Positions 4,964 to 47,672 of a stretch of 64,000 nt of DNA are shown here, piece by piece. Every line of letters starts with the position of its first letter. Positions within the stretch are counted from its first letter, which is position 1. Source of the stretch: Minisyncoccota bacterium (lineage in GTDB: Bacteria > Patescibacteriota > Minisyncoccia > Phycocordibacterales > Phycocordibacteraceae); NCBI GenBank assembly GCA_035531495.1, contig DATKSU010000006.1, positions 1,821 through 65,820 of the forward strand, written 5' to 3'. The notes beneath the pieces are model-generated. The model saw only the letters and a list, made by a program, of their open reading frames with translations, was not told where the DNA came from and made no database searches. The position numbers were made by a program, and so were the translations under genes.

Positions 4964-6652
4964 TTAGTGATGTTCGCCGACGCGCGCGAGCCGTGCCGAG
5001 AGCGTCGCGCACTCGGCCTGCGCACGTCCAGCCGCGGCCGCATCGCCTGCGGCCTCGGCTCTTCGGAGTGAGTTCACTGCTTCTTGATACGCCTCGCGGA
5101 TCACCGCTTCTTCAAAGGCGCGGAGAAGTTCATCCGCAGCGTCCTCCGAGGGCTCCTCGCCAAGCATCTCTTCCGCTTTGAAGAGCGCGGCTTCCGGGAG
5201 CGCATCCGAGGGCAGCTGGTGAGCTTCGGTGATACGAGTGTACTCCCCTCGCACGCGCTCGGCAAGCGGCGTCCCGGGATAGGCCTGGATAACGGCGAGG
5301 AGCTGCTCGCTCCGCATCTCCCGCGGGGATCGCGCGGCGGCCGGCGCCTTCGCCGACGCTGTGGCCGGCGCCTCTTCCCTGATGACGGGTGATTTCGGCA
5401 CCGAACCGCGTACGGCTTCGTCGGAGAGTCCGAGCGCGCGGGCCGTGACATGCACGAAGTGCTCGCGCTCCATGGGGCTCGGGATGGCCGCAATCAAGGG
5501 GAGCACGATGCGCTCGGCAGCGCGCAGGAGCCGGTGCGGATCCGTCTCGCGCTCGGCGAGCGACGCGAGGAAGAACTCGACGACGGGCTTCGCCTCCTTG
5601 ATGCGGAGCGAGAACTCCTTCGGGTCTTCGAGCACGAGGTCCGCCGGGTCCTTGCCGGCCGGCAGTCGCGCCGCCTTCACCCGCAGACCCTGCGTGAGCG
5701 CGAGCGCGGCCGACTTCGCGGTTGCGGTGAGGCCGGCCGGATCCGCGTCGAGCGCGAGCATGAGGTTCTCGCTGTAGCGCTTCATGAGCGCGAGGTGCGC
5801 GGCAGTGAGCGCGGTTCCGGAGAGAGCGACGGCGTTTCCGAACCCCGCCTGGTGCGCGAGGAGGACGTCCATCTGCCCTTCGACAAGGAGCGTGAAGCCG
5901 CGGGTGCGGATGGCGTCTTTCGCGCGGTCGAGGCCGAAGAGGATGTCAGATTTATGGTAGAGCTCGGTCTCGGGGCTATTCAGATACTTGGCCGGCTCGT
6001 CGACCGCGAGCGCGCGACCCGTGAAGGCGACGACGCGGCCGGCGACGTCGCGTATCGGGAAGATGAGGCGATTCCGGAACCGGTCGTAGTAGGTGCCGGG
6101 CTTGCCGTCCGCTTCCTTCACGAGGCCGGCCGCCGCGAGCTCGCTCGCCGAGAAACCTTCGGCCGCGAGCGTCTCAAGGAGAGCCCGCCAGCCGTCCGGC
6201 GCATAGCCGAGCCGCCAGGCCGCCACCGTCTCGTCGGCGAGCCCGCGCTTCTTCGCATACGCCGCGGCCGGGCTGTCCGCGAGCGTGCGGGCGTACCATT
6301 CGGTCGCGCGCATCATCGCCTCGCGCAGCCGTTCCGTGCGGCTCGCGCGCTCTTTCGAACGCGAGTCGTAGACGAGCTCGACGCCCGCCTTTTCGGCGAG
6401 GATCTTCAGAGCGCCCTTAAAATCGACGCCCTCCACCTTCTCGACGAAGGAGAACAGGTCGCCACCGAGACCGCAGCCGAAGCAGTGCCACGTCCCGCGC
6501 TCGAGCGAGACGTGGAAGGACGACGTCTTCTCCTTGTGGAACGGGCAGAGGCCGACGAGCGACTTCCCTGCCCGCTTCAGCTTCACGTACGGGCTGATGA
6601 CGTCATTGATGGAGAGACGGTCCTTGATCTCGGCGACCGTATCCCGCGCCAT
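4964..6652 (-). CDS. dnaG: DNA primase
   Basis: Zinc-binding [13 protein letters not shown]...WHCFGCG motif and a TOPRIM region (LVEGQMD). Start at M33 ([13 protein letters not shown]), 4 nt after the rpoC stop. Confidence 0.9.
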
Positions 6653-6656
6653 ATTT

Positions 6657-10379
<3,723 letters not shown>

Positions 10380-10400: not shown

Positions 10401-13577
<3,177 letters not shown>

Positions 13578-14422: not shown

Positions 14423-14461
14423 AGCTCGTAGCAGATGGCTTATAGCATATAGTACGGAGAC

Positions 14462-14600
14462 GGAGCTAGCGACATGCGGTATTGGTGGCTCTCGCAGGCG
14501 AAGCAGCACGGCAATCTCTGCGCCGAAGAGAAACTGCATAAAAATTTGCGGGCCGAGAGCGAGCGCGCCGCCCGCTGGGACGGCGACTGCGTACACCGAA
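14462..14600 (+). ncRNA. copy 1 of a two-copy ~135-145 nt structured intergenic element (putative novel ncRNA or repeat)
   Basis: About 80% identical to 47473-47622, including shared GGCTCTCG...AAATTTGCG(R)GCCGAGAGCGAGCGCGCC blocks. A 13-bp closing stem (UGCGGUAUUGGUG/CACCGAAACCGCA) covaries with the 18-bp stem of copy 2. The G-U wobbles are compatible only with a plus-strand transcript. Confidence 0.5.
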
Positions 14601-14626
14601 ACCGCACGCCCGAACGAAGACCAGGC

Positions 14627-23033: not shown

Positions 23034-23037
23034 AGTT

Positions 23038-23095
23038 TTAATCCCATTCAGAGCCGAAATCAAGGCGTGAAAACGGCCGGCGGTGGATAAAGAGG
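23038..23095 (-). promoter_or_regulatory. conserved upstream element copy A (promoter-like hexamers TTGATT-N17-TAAAAC plus TATCCACCGCCGGCCGTTTT motif)
   Basis: About 55 nt sharing TATCCACCGCCGGYCGTTTT...CCTTG.AT...GGGATTA with copy B at 23461-23518. Both copies lie directly upstream of a small ORF. Confidence 0.45.
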
Positions 23096-23423: not shown

Positions 23424-23460
23424 AAAGGTCAAACCGGGCGCATGCCCGGCTCTCCTCCTT

Positions 23461-23518
23461 CTAATCCCGTGCGCGACGGGATGCAAGGTGCAAAAACGAC
23501 CGGCGGTGGATAGCGCAC
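23461..23518 (-). promoter_or_regulatory. conserved upstream element copy B (TTGCAT-N17-TAGAAG plus TATCCACCGCCGGTCGTTTTT motif), overlapping the rnhB 3' end
   Basis: Sequence repeat of element A, with an ATCCCGT-CGCGC-ACGGGAT hairpin inside the spacer. Confidence 0.45.
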
Positions 23519-28545: not shown

Positions 28546-31500
28546 TTACGCGCCGATGGCTGCGAACGCGCGGGTGAGCGCGAGCTTCGCGCCGGTCACA
28601 CTCGCCGTGTAGCTCGAGTCGATAGCGGTGGTGAGGGAGGAGACGAGCTTCTCGAGGGTCGGCGTGTCGAAGCGCGCCGTCATGCGCACGACGTCGGGGT
28701 CGCACGGCGTGCCCTCGATGCGGGCGCGGTAGGCGTCGTCGAGCATGCAAACGGCATCCGTGAGCATCTTCTCCGGGGATTCCCCGCCGCGCGCTTGCTG
28801 GCGGATAGCCGCGAAGACCGCGCTCCGGTCGCCCTCGATGAGCGCCGCGAGGAAGCCGCGCACGTGCGCCGGCGGCAACGCCGCGCCGGCGGCGGCAGGG
28901 ACCGCTTCGAACGACTCGACGTGTTCGAACACGGGTTCGACGTGCTCATAGACCGGCTCCGTCTGCGGCGCGGGCGCCGGGCGCTCCGCGCGGCGAGCTG
29001 CCGACGGCTCGCGCTCGCGCGTGAGGCCCTTTACAATGTCGTCGACGGAGAGCGCGCCGGTGGCGTGACTGAACGACTTGAACCCTTCGAAGGGCGAATA
29101 GCCGCGCGGTGCGTCGACGGGCGCCTCGGCATGCAGCGCGGCAGGCGCGGGCTGTGGCGCCAGCTCATGCGCCGGCTCCTGTTCGGCGTTCAGAGCATCC
29201 GAAAGGCGCAGACCGAACGAGTGTCCGGAGCGGACGACGAACGGCACCGCGCTGAAGAGCACGAAGTATGCGAGAGCGAGCGAAAGGCCTATGAGGACGA
29301 GCCAGTACACTGTCGTTCCGACCGGACCGAGGTCGAGGCCGGTGTACGGAATCTGCGAAAGGTAGAGGTACGCGAGCGGCGCCGTGCTCACGTGCGGGAG
29401 CGCCGCGAGCGTGATGGTCGGAGGAGGCGTTCCGCCGCCTCCGCCTCCACCACCACCGCCTCCGCCGCCTCCGCCGCCTCCGCTCGTGACGTCGAGAGTC
29501 GCCGTGCAGATGAGGGTTTGGCCGGTATCCGTGTGGAACGTGCCCGTGTACGTATGGCTGCCGATGCTCGTCGGGGATACGCTCGCCGAGCCTGAGACCG
29601 CCGTCGTCGTGCCGACGCCGTTATCGATGAAAACTCCCGTGATGCCGAGGCCGCCCCAACTCAAGGTCGCCGCATTGCCGGAGACGACGCTCGTCGGGCT
29701 GACAGCGAGCGTGCAGGACGGACCGCCGCCTCCCCCGCCGCCGCCGACCGTGACGCTTGCGGTGCAGGTGCCGACCCTACCCATCGGGCTCACGACCGTC
29801 CCAGTGAAGACGGTGTCGGCCGTGATGGCCTTCGAGGTCGTCGTCCCGCTTACAGCTGGCGCGACGCTGCCGATGCCCTGGTCGATGGAGAACGTATCGG
29901 CATCGGTCGTCGCCCAGGCGAGGATCGTGGTGTCGCCCGTCGTGACTGACGCGGGCGTCGCCGTGAGCGTGCAGGTCGGCGTCGCGGGCGGCGGCGTCGA
30001 GACGGTGATGGTCACCGCACAGTGGGCCGTACCGCCGGCGCCGATAGCCGTTGCCGTATACGTCGTCGTCGTGATCGGCGAGACGGATGTAGAGCCGCTC
30101 GCGACCGGGGTCGACGTCCCGACGCCGTTATCGATCGTGAAGGACGTCGCGTTCGCCGACGTCCACGAGAGCGTCGCCGAACTGCCGCTCGTGATGGATG
30201 CGGGATTCGCGGAAAGCGTGCAGGAGACGGCAGGAGGAGGAGACGTCGTCACCTTGACCTTCGCCGTGCAGTGAACCGTGCCGCCGGAACCGGTCGCCGT
30301 GCCGGTATACGTCGTGGTCACGATCGGCGATGTCGTCGCCGAGCCGCTCGCAACGGGCGTCACGGAGCCGACGCCGTTATCTATGGAAAAGGAAGCGGCG
30401 TTCGAGGTCGTCCAGGAGAGCGTCGCGGTATCACCGGGTGCGATGGACGACGGGCTTGCCGAAAGCGAGCACATGGGTGCCGCGGGCGGGGGCGGCGATA
30501 TCACCTGCTGGTTCTTGAAGACGACAGCTGCGCAGACAGGACCGACCGGCACGTCGACCTTCCCGTCCGCCGGCGTGACGGACAGGAGCTTCCAGGTGCT
30601 CCCGGCCGGCACTTCGGTGACCTGATGCATGCCGACGGAGACTCCACTGAACGATGCGTTGCCATTCGCGTCATTCTGCGTCGTCAGTCCGCCATCAAGC
30701 GTGAAGGTGAATTGCGCAACCGGCTTCAGTTCGTTGCCGTTCGGATCGAAGGTCTCTTTCAGTATAGAGATGCAGCCTTTCGCGGGCGGGGGCGTCGTGA
30801 CGATCACTTTCGCCGTGCAGTGAACCGTGCCGCCGGAACCCGTCGCCGTGCCGGTATACGTCGTCGTCGCGGTCGGGGAAACCGAGGTCGAGCCGCTCGC
30901 AACGGGCGTCACGGAGCCGACGCCGTTATCTATGGAAAAGGAAGCGGCATTCGAGGTCGTCCAGGAGAGCGTCGCGGAACCGCCGTTCTGGATGGACGGA
31001 GGGCTTGCCGAAAGCGAGCACGTGGGTGCCGCGGGCGGCGGGGGCGTCGTGACGGTCACGGTCGTCGTACAGTGCACGGTCTTGCCGTCCGACCCCGTCG
31101 CCGTACCCGTATACGTCGTCGTCACGGCCGGCGAGACCGTCACCGAGCCGCCGGACGCGGGCGAGACGGAACCGACGCCGTTATTGATGGAGAAGGACGC
31201 CGCGTTCTTCACGGACCAGGTAAGCGTCGTCGAGTCGCCCTTCGCGATGGATGCCGGACTCGCGGAGAGTGTGCAGGAGCACGGGCCGGGCGGCGGGGAC
31301 GTCGTGACAGTGATTGTAATCGAGCAGTGGGCCGTCGCCGTCGCGCTCGAGACCGTACCGGTGTACGTCGTCGTCACAGCTGGCGAGACCGTGACAGAAC
31401 CGTGCGCGACCGGCGTCACGGGACCGATACCGTTGTCGATTGTGAACGACGTCGCGTTCGCCGTCGCCCACGAGATGACGGTCACGGAACCGCCGTTGAT

Positions 31501-31716
31501 GCTCGTCGCGCTCGCGGAGAGCGAGCACGAGGCCGCGGCGTAGGATGAACTCAAGGAGCCGCCGGTCAGGTCGTGCGCGAACACCTGCGCCGGGGTAATC
31601 GCACCGGTCGCCAGTGCGACGACAGCGCCAAGAAGAAGCGTCGCGGATATTGCAAGGACGCCGATGAGCATCGGACGGCGGATCGTATGGGAAATGAGGT
31701 CGTGGTCGGTATGCAT
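28546..31716 (-). CDS. giant cell-surface protein (~1056 aa from M28; track ORF 1083 aa): signal/TM, at least 8 tandem Ig-like repeats, poly-Gly linkers, IPYTG motif, TM segment, ~250-aa cytoplasmic tail
   Basis: Repeats of the form CSLSASP..I..G..ATLSWTTSNAASFSIDNGVGSVTPVASGS..SP..TTTYTGTATGSGGTVHC, runs of GGGGGGGG and G17, and LSQIPYTGLDLG followed by the hydrophobic VYWLVLIGLSLALAYFVLFSAV. The sortase gene is adjacent. Confidence 0.8.
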   Translation of the reverse strand: MHTDHDLISHTIRRPMLIGVLAISATLLLGAVVALATGAITPAQVFAHDLTGGSLSSSYAAASCSLSASATSINGGSVTVISWATANATSFTIDNGIGPVTPVAHGSVTVSPAVTTTYTGTVSSATATAHCSITITVTTSPPPGPCSCTLSASPASIAKGDSTTLTWSVKNAASFSINNGVGSVSPASGGSVTVSPAVTTTYTGTATGSDGKTVHCTTTVTVTTPPPPAAPTCSLSASPPSIQNGGSATLSWTTSNAASFSIDNGVGSVTPVASGSTSVSPTATTTYTGTATGSGGTVHCTAKVIVTTPPPAKGCISILKETFDPNGNELKPVAQFTFTLDGGLTTQNDANGNASFSGVSVGMHQVTEVPAGSTWKLLSVTPADGKVDVPVGPVCAAVVFKNQQVISPPPPAAPMCSLSASPSSIAPGDTATLSWTTSNAASFSIDNGVGSVTPVASGSATTSPIVTTTYTGTATGSGGTVHCTAKVKVTTSPPPAVSCTLSANPASITSGSSATLSWTSANATSFTIDNGVGTSTPVASGSTSVSPITTTTYTATAIGAGGTAHCAVTITVSTPPPATPTCTLTATPASVTTGDTTILAWATTDADTFSIDQGIGSVAPAVSGTTTSKAITADTVFTGTVVSPMGRVGTCTASVTVGGGGGGGGPSCTLAVSPTSVVSGNAATLSWGGLGITGVFIDNGVGTTTAVSGSASVSPTSIGSHTYTGTFHTDTGQTLICTATLDVTSGGGGGGGGGGGGGGGGGTPPPTITLAALPHVSTAPLAYLYLSQIPYTGLDLGPVGTTVYWLVLIGLSLALAYFVLFSAVPFVVRSGHSFGLRLSDALNAEQEPAHELAPQPAPAALHAEAPVDAPRGYSPFEGFKSFSHATGALSVDDIVKGLTREREPSAARRAERPAPAPQTEPVYEHVEPVFEHVESFEAVPAAAGAALPPAHVRGFLAALIEGDRSAVFAAIRQQARGGESPEKMLTDAVCMLDDAYRARIEGTPCDPDVVRMTARFDTPTLEKLVSSLTTAIDSSYTASVTGAKLALTRAFAAIGA
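29700..31560. repeat. near-identical tandem DNA repeats (~270-280 bp unit) encoding the Ig-like domains
   Basis: Stretches such as 30255-30440 and 30800-30985 are almost identical at the nucleotide level. Confidence 0.7.
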
Positions 31717-39816: not shown

Positions 39817-39825
39817 CGTCCCGCC

Positions 39826-40506: not shown

Positions 40507-40580
40507 AGCCGGGGGTGAGATTCGAACTCACGACCTGCTGTTTACAAAACAGCTGCTCTGACCAACTGAGCTACCCCGGC
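40507..40580 (-). tRNA. tRNA-Thr (anticodon UGU)
   Basis: Folds as a cloverleaf: acceptor GCCGGGG/CCCCGGC, D-arm GCTC...GAGC, anticodon stem GCTGT/ACAGC with loop TTTGTAA, T-arm GTGAG-TTCGAAT-CTCAC. CCA is not encoded. Confidence 0.85.
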
Positions 40581-40592
40581 CGAGTGAGCGAA

Positions 40593-40660
40593 CAGAAGCA
40601 AAAGTAGCATACTTTTGCTTCTGTGAACGAACGAGGTCAGGGTATGTACTCATACCCCGG
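40593..40660 (-). terminator. two hairpins between upstream ORF and tRNA-Thr (terminator/processing signals)
   Basis: A 13-bp perfect stem CAGAAGCAAAAGT/ACTTTTGCTTCTG plus GGGTATG/CATACCC. Confidence 0.35.
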
Positions 40661-47434: not shown

Positions 47435-47472
47435 CGTGTTCTCCCTCACTCTATCACCCCCATCCTCTTCAG

Positions 47473-47622
47473 CGAGCCTGATGCGGATCGGGAGGCTCTC
47501 GGAAGCGAAACAGCATGGTAATTTCGGCGCCGAAGGGAGGCCGCGACGAAATTTGCGAGCCGAGAGCGAGCGCGCCTGCCCCAGCGGGCAGGCGACGCGT
47601 ACTCCCGATCCGTATCAGGCGA
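47473..47622 (+). ncRNA. copy 2 of the two-copy structured intergenic element (putative novel ncRNA or repeat)
   Basis: Closed by an 18-bp stem CCUGAUGCGGAUCGGGAG/CUCCCGAUCCGUAUCAGG with one G-U. It contains the internal hairpin GCCUGCCC-CAGC-GGGCAGGC. It occupies the same geometry as copy 1, about 50 nt upstream of the next minus-strand gene start. Confidence 0.5.
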
Positions 47623-47672
47623 GCGCCCTATTTCTTCCCAACACACGAAGACGTGTGGACGGGCTTCGGCAG

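Follow-up and report, generated by a model that had tools for sequence, protein, structure and literature searches.

What is a noncoding element of 135-165 bp that lies between housekeeping genes at two places in the same genome and preserves its fold while the sequence of its closing stem changes? The question arises from a 64,000-nt stretch of contig DATKSU010000006.1 (GenBank assembly GCA_035531495.1), hereafter the window, which derives from a metagenome-assembled genome (MAG) of Candidatus Paceibacterota in the candidate phyla radiation (CPR, or Patescibacteria) with a GC content of 65%. An initial annotation, made from the letters of the window alone, had proposed that the two copies represent a novel structured RNA transcribed from the plus strand, antisense to the surrounding operons. 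The reading that we favor, with a probability of roughly 0.55, is that the element represents a previously undescribed, low-copy family of foldback intergenic repeats, that is, a non-autonomous mobile element akin to the miniature inverted-repeat transposable elements (MITEs) and the enterobacterial repetitive intergenic consensus (ERIC) elements. Judging from the genomes searched, the family ranges over a small clade of high-GC Candidatus Paceibacterota.

Copy 1 (w1) spans window positions 14462-14619 and copy 2 (w2) positions 47469-47627, each where the initial annotation had located it (14462-14600 and 47473-47622), and the two are clearly homologous, with a mean column identity of 78% over ~200 columns in a MAFFT alignment (~80% had been claimed). 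The 64 kb contain exactly two occurrences of a 28-nt block, AAATTTGCGRGCCGAGAGCGAGCGCGCC, and likewise two of a 29-nt 5' block, against an expectation of 0 from 100 shuffles. The pair was also recovered independently by a repeat search (as D8), which in addition returned the closing stem of copy 2 as an inverted repeat (I16; 19 nt, 95% complementary). Copy 1 occupies most of the 204-nt gap between the stop of a KH-protein gene (14627) and the start of trmD (14422), and copy 2 most of the 238-nt gap between the stop of rpmE, the gene for L31 (47673), and the start of prfA (47434); all four genes lie on the minus strand, a context that had been read correctly at the outset. Both copies are matched over the whole element by a covariance model (R1) built from four copies, with scores of 135.6 bits for copy 1 and 170.8 bits for copy 2. 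The best copies score 170-174 bits, and copy 1 is the more decayed of the two.

Every copy folds as a three-way junction composed of a closing stem (P1), an arm (P2/P2b) and a hairpin (P3). The core of ~105 nt consists of two hairpins, P2/P2b and P3, and is closed by the P1 inverted repeat. P2 (GGCUCUCG/CGAGAGCC) is nearly invariant and is followed by an asymmetric internal loop of 16-17 nt with a conserved 5' strand, AGGCGAAGCAGCAYGG; P2b (AAUUNCNGCGC/GCGNNGNAAUU) exhibits exchanges between U-A and G-C at two positions, and P3 is a GC-rich hairpin with covariation in its distal half. In copy 1, the 5' arm of P1 (14474-14487, ATGCGGTATTGGTG) pairs with its 3' arm (14594-14606), and the closing stem TGCGGTATTGGTG/CACCGAAACCGCA contains one A.A and one U.G. 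Within it lie the near-invariant 5' arm of P2 (14488-14495, GCTCTCG), which pairs with 14553-14560 (CCGAGAGC), the conserved internal loop (14496-14511, AGGCGAAGCAGCACGG), a degenerate P2b hairpin (14512-14548) with three C.A cells and one G.U, and the P3 hairpin (14563-14590, GCGCGCCGCCC/GGACGGCGACTGC). In copy 2, the 5' arm of P1 (47476-47494, GCCTGATGCGGATCGGGAG) forms 19 bp, one of them G.U, with the 3' arm (47602-47620, CTCCCGATCCGTATCAGGC); these enclose the 5' arm of P2 (47495-47502, paired with 47560-47567), the conserved internal loop (47503-47518, AAGCGAAACAGCATGG), a P2b hairpin with a 12-nt loop (47519-47555, AATTTCGGCGC/GCGACGAAATT) and P3 (47570-47598, GCGCGCCTGCC/GGCAGGCGACGC). 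P1 differs in sequence in every copy and ranges in length from 13 bp in w1 and 19 bp in w2 to 20, 23 and 25 bp in L100, L033 and L017, the full copies found in other genomes, and nearly perfect Watson-Crick pairing is kept throughout. Two features of the first description, closing stems that diverge in sequence and still pair and a covarying internal GC hairpin (P3), are as it described them.

In a seven-row alignment (A4), 93.0% of cells were paired, as against 34.7-42.5% when partners were slid by 1-3 columns, and changes on both sides were found in 30 pairs, as against 6-15 in the slid controls; the observed pairing values were reached by none of 500 shuffles. The base-pairing potential of the element is real and maintained. 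This is covariation of the sort that supports a folded RNA gene, though template switching at the DNA level can also generate it in long inverted repeats. Watson-Crick pairs account for 53/53 in L017, 52/53 in L033 and 48/50 in L100. Functional RNAs usually carry several-fold more G.U pairs, and on one strand only, and near-perfect Watson-Crick pairing is typical of a DNA palindrome. Over the six distinct copies, ~4 cells are G.U on the model strand and ~5 are A.C, a cell that becomes G.U when the opposite strand is read; there is no enrichment on either. The claim that wobbles are tolerated solely in a plus-strand transcript is not borne out by copy 1 itself, where 4-6 C.A or A.C cells (minus-strand G.U) compare with 2 G.U on the plus strand, and where the three C.A cells in P2b and another in P3 would pair solely on the minus strand. 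Wobble pairs, lacking any bias, were accordingly discarded as a means of assigning a strand, and folding energies were discarded as well, since they give mixed results from non-independent copies: the model (plus) strand gives the more stable fold by 1.4-8.6 kcal/mol in the four best-preserved copies, and the other strand by 1.5-2.5 kcal/mol in the two degenerate ones. Because the four share a core and an ancestry, their energy bias amounts to essentially one observation.

If these helices were those of an independent gene, the element would be a family of trans-acting structured small RNAs (sRNAs), expressed from plus-strand promoters of their own, antisense to the operons and acting through the conserved internal loop and junction, for example by protein binding or target pairing. 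Compensatory changes in P1, P2b and P3 of a three-way junction speak for such a family, as do unpaired loop and junction sequences that are 83-100% conserved despite saturated synonymous sites, the better plus-strand folding of the four best copies, and an alternative helix available to the plus strand only, GCGAA/UUUGC, which in the alignment tolerates two one-sided changes (G.U to G-C and A-U to G.U). An AT-rich TATAGT can also be read ~20 nt upstream of copy 1. Rfam 15 returned a single hit at gathering score in the window, a tRNA elsewhere, and at E<=10 both copies yielded noise, the best sub-threshold values (E=0.82-9.9) lying far under the gathering scores; the families without a match include 6S, SRP, tmRNA, RNase P, Y RNA, the self-cleaving ribozymes and retron msr. 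An sRNA of this type would hence be new.

Transcription signals and orientation point the other way. No sigma-70-type promoter consensus flanks w1 or w2 on either strand, with the caveat that CPR promoters may differ; intrinsic-terminator consensus sites are likewise absent from the flanks of both copies on both strands, and no motif common to the flanks of the copies was found, such that consensus-site scans assign the element no promoter, terminator or transcript ends of its own. The element is antisense to co-directional neighbors at three loci (w1, w2/L101 and L017), but the L100 copy lies in sense orientation between two co-directional genes and the L033 copy lies between divergent genes. 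Moreover, the wobble pairs have no strand bias in a near-perfectly Watson-Crick fold, orthologous sites in close relatives are without copies, and copy 1 is visibly decaying (135.6 vs 170.8 bits) with mismatches that favor the opposite strand. A trans-acting sRNA family is therefore quite improbable. Of the initial proposal, what stands is a real, noncoding, structured two-copy element with compensatory changes and no Rfam match; what is not supported is the independent plus-strand antisense transcript, given the even wobbles, the lack of promoter or terminator consensus and the sense orientation in L100. A protein-coding reading was rejected: the similarity between overlapping open reading frames noted earlier is real, yet two 1-nt indels in L017 interrupt the peptide frame that the copies have in common. 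Four copies, translated in six frames and concatenated, were also used as a probe for further copies overlain by spurious ORF calls, and matched nothing at E<=1 in a database of 5.8 billion proteins.

One local feature near copy 1 deserves separate mention. Between w1 and the start of trmD lies an AT-rich patch, GGCTTATAGCATATAGTAC (14436-14453), which is conspicuous at 65% GC and reads on the minus strand as TGCTATAAG, an extended -10-like sequence, and on the plus strand as TATAGT. The window trmD is without the Shine-Dalgarno sequence that in relatives forms part of the KH gene's final stretch, and the insertion of w1 may thus have brought or created a new trmD promoter.

The distribution of the element carries the argument for mobility. 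A pattern scan of 185,579 species, each represented by a single genome, returned 52 matches, three of which are real: L033 and L017, two copies in MAG SKS1.bin80, and L018 in WY2.bin144, the orthologue of L017. We also fetched the trmD and prfA neighborhoods of the closest relatives, whose TrmD and PrfA are ~80-84% identical; ~250 kb of relatives' DNA was searched with R1 and contained solely one full copy (L100, 131.7 bits) and a 111-nt short variant without the P2b arm (L101/L102), which occupies the same rpmE-prfA junction as copy 2. Six distinct sequences of the family are thus known to date, five full copies (w1, w2, L033, L017 and L100) and the short variant. A further contig, L003 (JGI 3300031671, Ga0307372_10023234), carries copy 2 as an exact match to the scan pattern. 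Among JGI metagenome contigs a gapped pattern returned 34 loci, all attributable to chance, a weak negative from a collection that is not exhaustive and missed L003. Three scans of viral contigs, with a covariance-model check, gave no true copy, and the phage and plasmid collections gave no match.

The five occupied junctions, S16-KH|trmD, L31|prfA, GT2|223-aa gene, NRAMP|SDR and recJ<>HIT, lie inside conserved operons, and the same junctions in close relatives measure 0-12 nt or contain a plain hairpin. At the KH|trmD junction, the gap is 204 nt in the window, at most 2 nt in L091, L093 and L098, and 82 nt in L099; another gene intervenes in L092 and L097, and unrelated long hairpins are present in L090 and L099. 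L100 and L103 have gaps of 54 and 85 nt at the L31|prfA junction, which measures 238 nt in the window, and each of these gaps contains just a simple, perfect GC-rich hairpin of 14-15 bp. Conversely, the GT2|223-aa gene junction, which holds the full copy in L100, is an empty site of 9 nt in the window (39817-39825, plus strand) and measures 12 nt in L101. By these comparisons, the element was gained, or precisely lost, at different operon junctions in different genomes, which is the behavior of an interspersed mobile repeat and not of a conserved RNA gene. The initial annotation had itself held that a high-copy dispersed repeat with target-site duplications would indicate a MITE. That pattern is largely what emerged, in that non-orthologous junctions are occupied and stand empty in relatives, but the copy number is low and the duplications are inconsistent. 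The element also resembles MITEs in being short, noncoding and foldback (135-165 bp, frame broken, long stem-loops) and in being dispersed with presence or absence among related genomes. An inverted repeat of 13-25 bp is found in every copy, yet these repeats are only 28-61% identical between copies.

How P1 can vary so freely and still pair is best approached from its construction. In 4/6 copies P1 carries the motif GATGYG in one common register (positions -15 to -10), from which it follows that the inner 15 bp of P1 belong to the element. Outside GATGYG, each copy adds 4-10 bp of unique and perfectly palindromic sequence (GCCT/AGGC, CGCCG/CGGCG, GTCCGAC/GTCGGAC, GCAAGGCAGC/GCTGCCTTGC). An origin of P1 by insertion into the loops of pre-existing terminators was rejected for the inner 15 bp on account of the GATGYG register, and is possible solely for the outer 4-10 bp. 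Under the foldback-repeat reading, the complementarity of the arms and the palindromic extensions would be maintained or newly formed in the DNA itself, probably through template switching during replication (quasipalindrome correction), possibly combined with selection for a hairpin. Template switching creates perfect stems and repairs existing ones with multi-base 'compensatory' changes (PMC8794818), and two further reports describe how it homogenizes and extends inverted-repeat arms (PMC13100816) and inverts the spacer between them (PMC8604942). Such a process would yield 'covariation' without wobble pairs and without strand bias, and we infer that it accounts for the palindromic extensions and possibly for the flips in orientation as well.

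Target-site duplications are inconsistent. Candidates are GCGAGC in w2 (6/6; 47470-47475, the second at ~47621-47626 as read from the sequence) and GYGGAGC in L100 (6/7; GCGGAGC/GTGGAGC). The w2 duplication is offset by 2 nt of inverted-repeat extension and, L100's 6/7 aside, is the one convincing case; how far a duplication lies from the conserved tip motif varies.

In contrast to P1, the core is constrained. Identity between copies is 72-83% in the core and 83-92% in P2 plus the internal loop, as against 28-61% in P1, and the segment GCGAGCCGAGAGCGAG is 79-100% identical. Copies within a genome are no closer than copies between genomes (w1-w2 77%, L017-L033 79%, w2-L100 83%), and the third codon positions of prfA and rpsB in the same genomes, at 55-65% identity, are essentially saturated. 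With Jukes-Cantor distances of ~0.23 for the core and ~1.0 for P1, the core, including its unpaired loops, evolves at least ~4 times more slowly than P1. Conservation where synonymous sites are saturated (~56%) indicates that the sequence of the core is constrained, whereas P1 and the distal part of P3 need only pair, and this constraint holds whether the core serves the host or the element's own propagation. As a foldback repeat, the element would need its core sequence for propagation or function.

A different emphasis would make the core itself the functional agent. CPR bacteria would then harbor a novel class of mobile, structured nucleic acid, RNA or single-stranded DNA, in which the fold and loops are required for propagation, or have been co-opted by the host as RNA, and the closing stem need only pair. 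This would explain why the core is 72-92% identical across species at saturated synonymous divergence, and it would explain the recurrence of the same design in a second family; we consider it unlikely, albeit worth keeping in view. The second family consists of hairpins at the KH|trmD junction of relatives (L099:8152-8222; L090:9925-9995, 9803-9907 and 1397-1479) that share a conserved ~25-nt loop, GCGTTTCGNGGACTGCACTAAGC, on unrelated stems of 20-28 bp, mismatched in L090:9925-9995 and perfect in the others. The loop lies in opposite orientations in L099 and L090, and the family has the conserved center and free stem of the element under study and is otherwise unrelated to it.

A more specific version of the foldback-repeat reading names the enzyme: the element would move as a single-stranded-DNA hairpin by means of an HUH/Y1 transposase, in the manner of repetitive extragenic palindromes (REPs) and REPINs with their RAYT transposases or of the IS200/IS605-related PATE elements, with the folded core as the structure that the enzyme recognizes. 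It would fit a core that is conserved as a folded unit on stems that merely keep pairing, and the scarcity of target-site duplications, which is expected of Y1 transposition; moreover, a Y1_Tnp gene (PF01797) is present in relative L090, beside other hairpin elements. In that genome (GCA_023267775.1) a Y1 and an IS110-type transposase (PF02371, a weak match) are encoded at 6380-7033 and 11973-13271, no more than 4 kb from the hairpins at KH|trmD. The version is nevertheless very improbable, as no Y1 gene occurs in the window or adjoins any copy, the element exceeds REPs 4-5-fold in length and, in the alignment, lacks their GTAG/CGTC tags (PMC3733652), and its two ends pair together, where IS200/IS605 elements have separate hairpins at the left and right ends.

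Whatever moved them, w1 and w2 would be co-transcribed passively within the minus-strand operon mRNAs, as the contiguity of these operons in relatives implies. Between cistrons of such an mRNA, the element would form a closed, double-stranded-like hairpin of 13-19 bp that could act as a processing site (RNase III is encoded by the host), a stability element or an attenuator. MITEs and ERIC elements, which are under 200 bp, form long RNA stem-loops and are co-transcribed, affect mRNA stability (PMC3184786), and by the precedent of ERIC and Correia elements an effect on mRNA processing or stability may be expected here as well. The same considerations invite the stronger view that the element is host-selected, a cis-acting mRNA element on the minus strand that functions as a processing site for RNase III or RNase E, a stabilizer or a partial terminator and so makes KH expression independent of that of trmD, and L31 expression of that of prfA. 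The element indeed sits inside operons that are tightly packed in relatives, several of its closing stems are perfect duplexes of 19-25 bp, the length of an RNase III substrate, in a host that encodes the enzyme, simple perfect hairpins occupy the rpmE-prfA junction of relatives, and ERIC and Correia elements offer a precedent (PMC3184786). This view is doubtful, for no single transcribed strand is conserved (transcription crosses the opposite strand in L100, and L033 lies between divergent genes), the genes that follow the element (trmD, prfA, SDR, HIT and an unknown gene) have no functional relationship, and a 105-nt core with conserved unpaired loops is left unexplained where a plain hairpin would do.

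Plain hairpins are in any case abundant in these genomes, in which long perfect inverted repeats (arms of at least 15 bp) number 0-5 per locus versus ~0 in shuffles. Many palindromes of 15-21 bp with perfect stems and loops of 3-6 nt lie at gene ends in relatives (L100:1376-1408, 2379-2423 and 6414-6461; L103:116-155; L091:7042-7085; L099:5428-5467), where ~0 are expected in shuffles; they display the A-tract/T-tract pattern typical of bidirectional terminators, and several separate convergent genes.

Comparison with described families places the element close to ERIC sequences (IRUs), the 127-bp MITE-like imperfect palindromes of the Enterobacteriaceae. The two agree in size (~130-160 bp), intergenic location within transcription units, a long stem-loop, occurrence in either orientation, locations that differ between related species and, for ERIC, an influence on mRNA decay (PMC3184786). 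They have no sequence similarity, and ERIC copies are conserved over their whole length, with terminal inverted repeats (TIRs), target duplications and a flanking TA, whereas the element described here combines a hypervariable closing stem with a conserved three-way-junction interior, inconsistent duplications and a very low copy number. The Correia elements of Neisseria (CREE/NEMIS) and the MITEs RUP, Nezha and Chunjie are likewise noncoding inverted-repeat insertions of 100-170 bp that lie between genes and are co-transcribed, and their RNA hairpins are substrates of RNase III. Correia elements, however, number in the hundreds and bear a TA duplication and conserved TIRs of 26 bp, as opposed to the few copies seen here, whose shared TIR sequence is confined to a weak GATGYG motif.

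The REP/REPIN-RAYT systems share with the element palindromic extragenic repeats between unidirectional genes that are thought to move as hairpins, and one relative has a gene of the Y1 transposase family. REPs are 20-40 bp long and high-copy, with an unpaired GTAG or CGTC tag (PMC3733652), and in REPINs the flanking REPs are conserved and the spacer is variable, the reverse of the present arrangement. A unit of 135-165 bp at 2 copies per 64 kb does not answer to this description, nor do its sequences: the junction reads GUA/GTAC, not GTAG, and CGTC appears on one strand only and in some copies. No RAYT (Y1 transposase) gene was found in the 64-kb window, PF01797 being present in relative L090.

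Structured multi-copy ncRNA motifs of bacteria (e.g. PMC5737381) resemble the element in their multi-helix folds, compensatory changes, conserved loops and junctions, and narrow lineage distribution, but the element differs in having no strand or transcription signal, almost no G.U pairs, no Rfam match and insertion polymorphism. The retron msr-msd RNA is similar in its ~150-nt length and its variable closing inverted repeat (a1/a2) around a short and a long hairpin; the difference is that no reverse transcriptase gene lies downstream of any copy, where we find trmD, prfA, SDR, HIT or recJ, and an unknown 221-aa gene, and that no Rfam retron model matches. Retrons, integron attC sites and IS110 bridge RNAs were set aside in the absence of an associated enzyme gene and of their defining motifs. 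Hammerhead and other self-cleaving ribozymes were also rejected: junction strands of 0, 2 and 3 nt do not fit, and Rfam gave no hit.

Several observations weigh against the foldback-repeat reading. No transposase adjoins any copy, the window contains no homologue of the Y1 or IS110 transposases of L090 by tblastn, and no autonomous partner emerged from the phage and plasmid collections or the viral contigs. Copies are few, 2 per 64 kb here and ~6 distinct ones across 185,579 species genomes and 22 relatives' loci obtained through protein look-up. Target-site duplications are inconsistent, with none at L017, L033, L101 or w1. The tips of the element are less conserved than its interior, opposite to classical TIR-type MITEs, and the strong conservation of unpaired loops and junctions is what one would also expect of a functional RNA. 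The four best-preserved copies, which share ancestry, have a folding advantage on the plus strand.

Three other repeats were recorded in the window. At 40572-40644, directly adjoining a minus-strand tRNA gene (40507-40580), is a long imperfect hairpin with 35-nt arms that are 74% complementary and a perfect 15-bp inner stem, ACAGAAGCAAAAGTA. A 54-nt direct repeat (23036-23089 and 23459-23512; two copies, 72% identical; TTYTAATCCC...CAAGGYG...AAAACGRCCGGCGGTGGATA) resembles a promoter or leader motif common to both sites: read along the minus strand, each copy apparently lies just upstream of a candidate start codon, the second being followed by GGAGGAGAG and ATG. Tandem repeats of ~250 nt at 29400-31600 (5 copies, 61-87% identical, with shorter repeats embedded) probably lie within a large repetitive surface-protein gene.

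Interspersed repeats and noncoding RNAs are almost uncharted in CPR/Patescibacteria, and in such small, tightly packed genomes it is striking to find housekeeping genes whose translation is coupled (KH|trmD, L31|prfA) separated by insertions of 150-250 nt. The element also carries a caution for ncRNA discovery, in that long inverted repeats can exhibit textbook 'covariation' without any strand signal, a consequence of template switching that keeps their arms complementary at the DNA level. If the core does prove to be a functional RNA or an enzyme-recognized hairpin, it would offer a handle on expression control or on mobile-DNA mechanisms in an uncultivated lineage.

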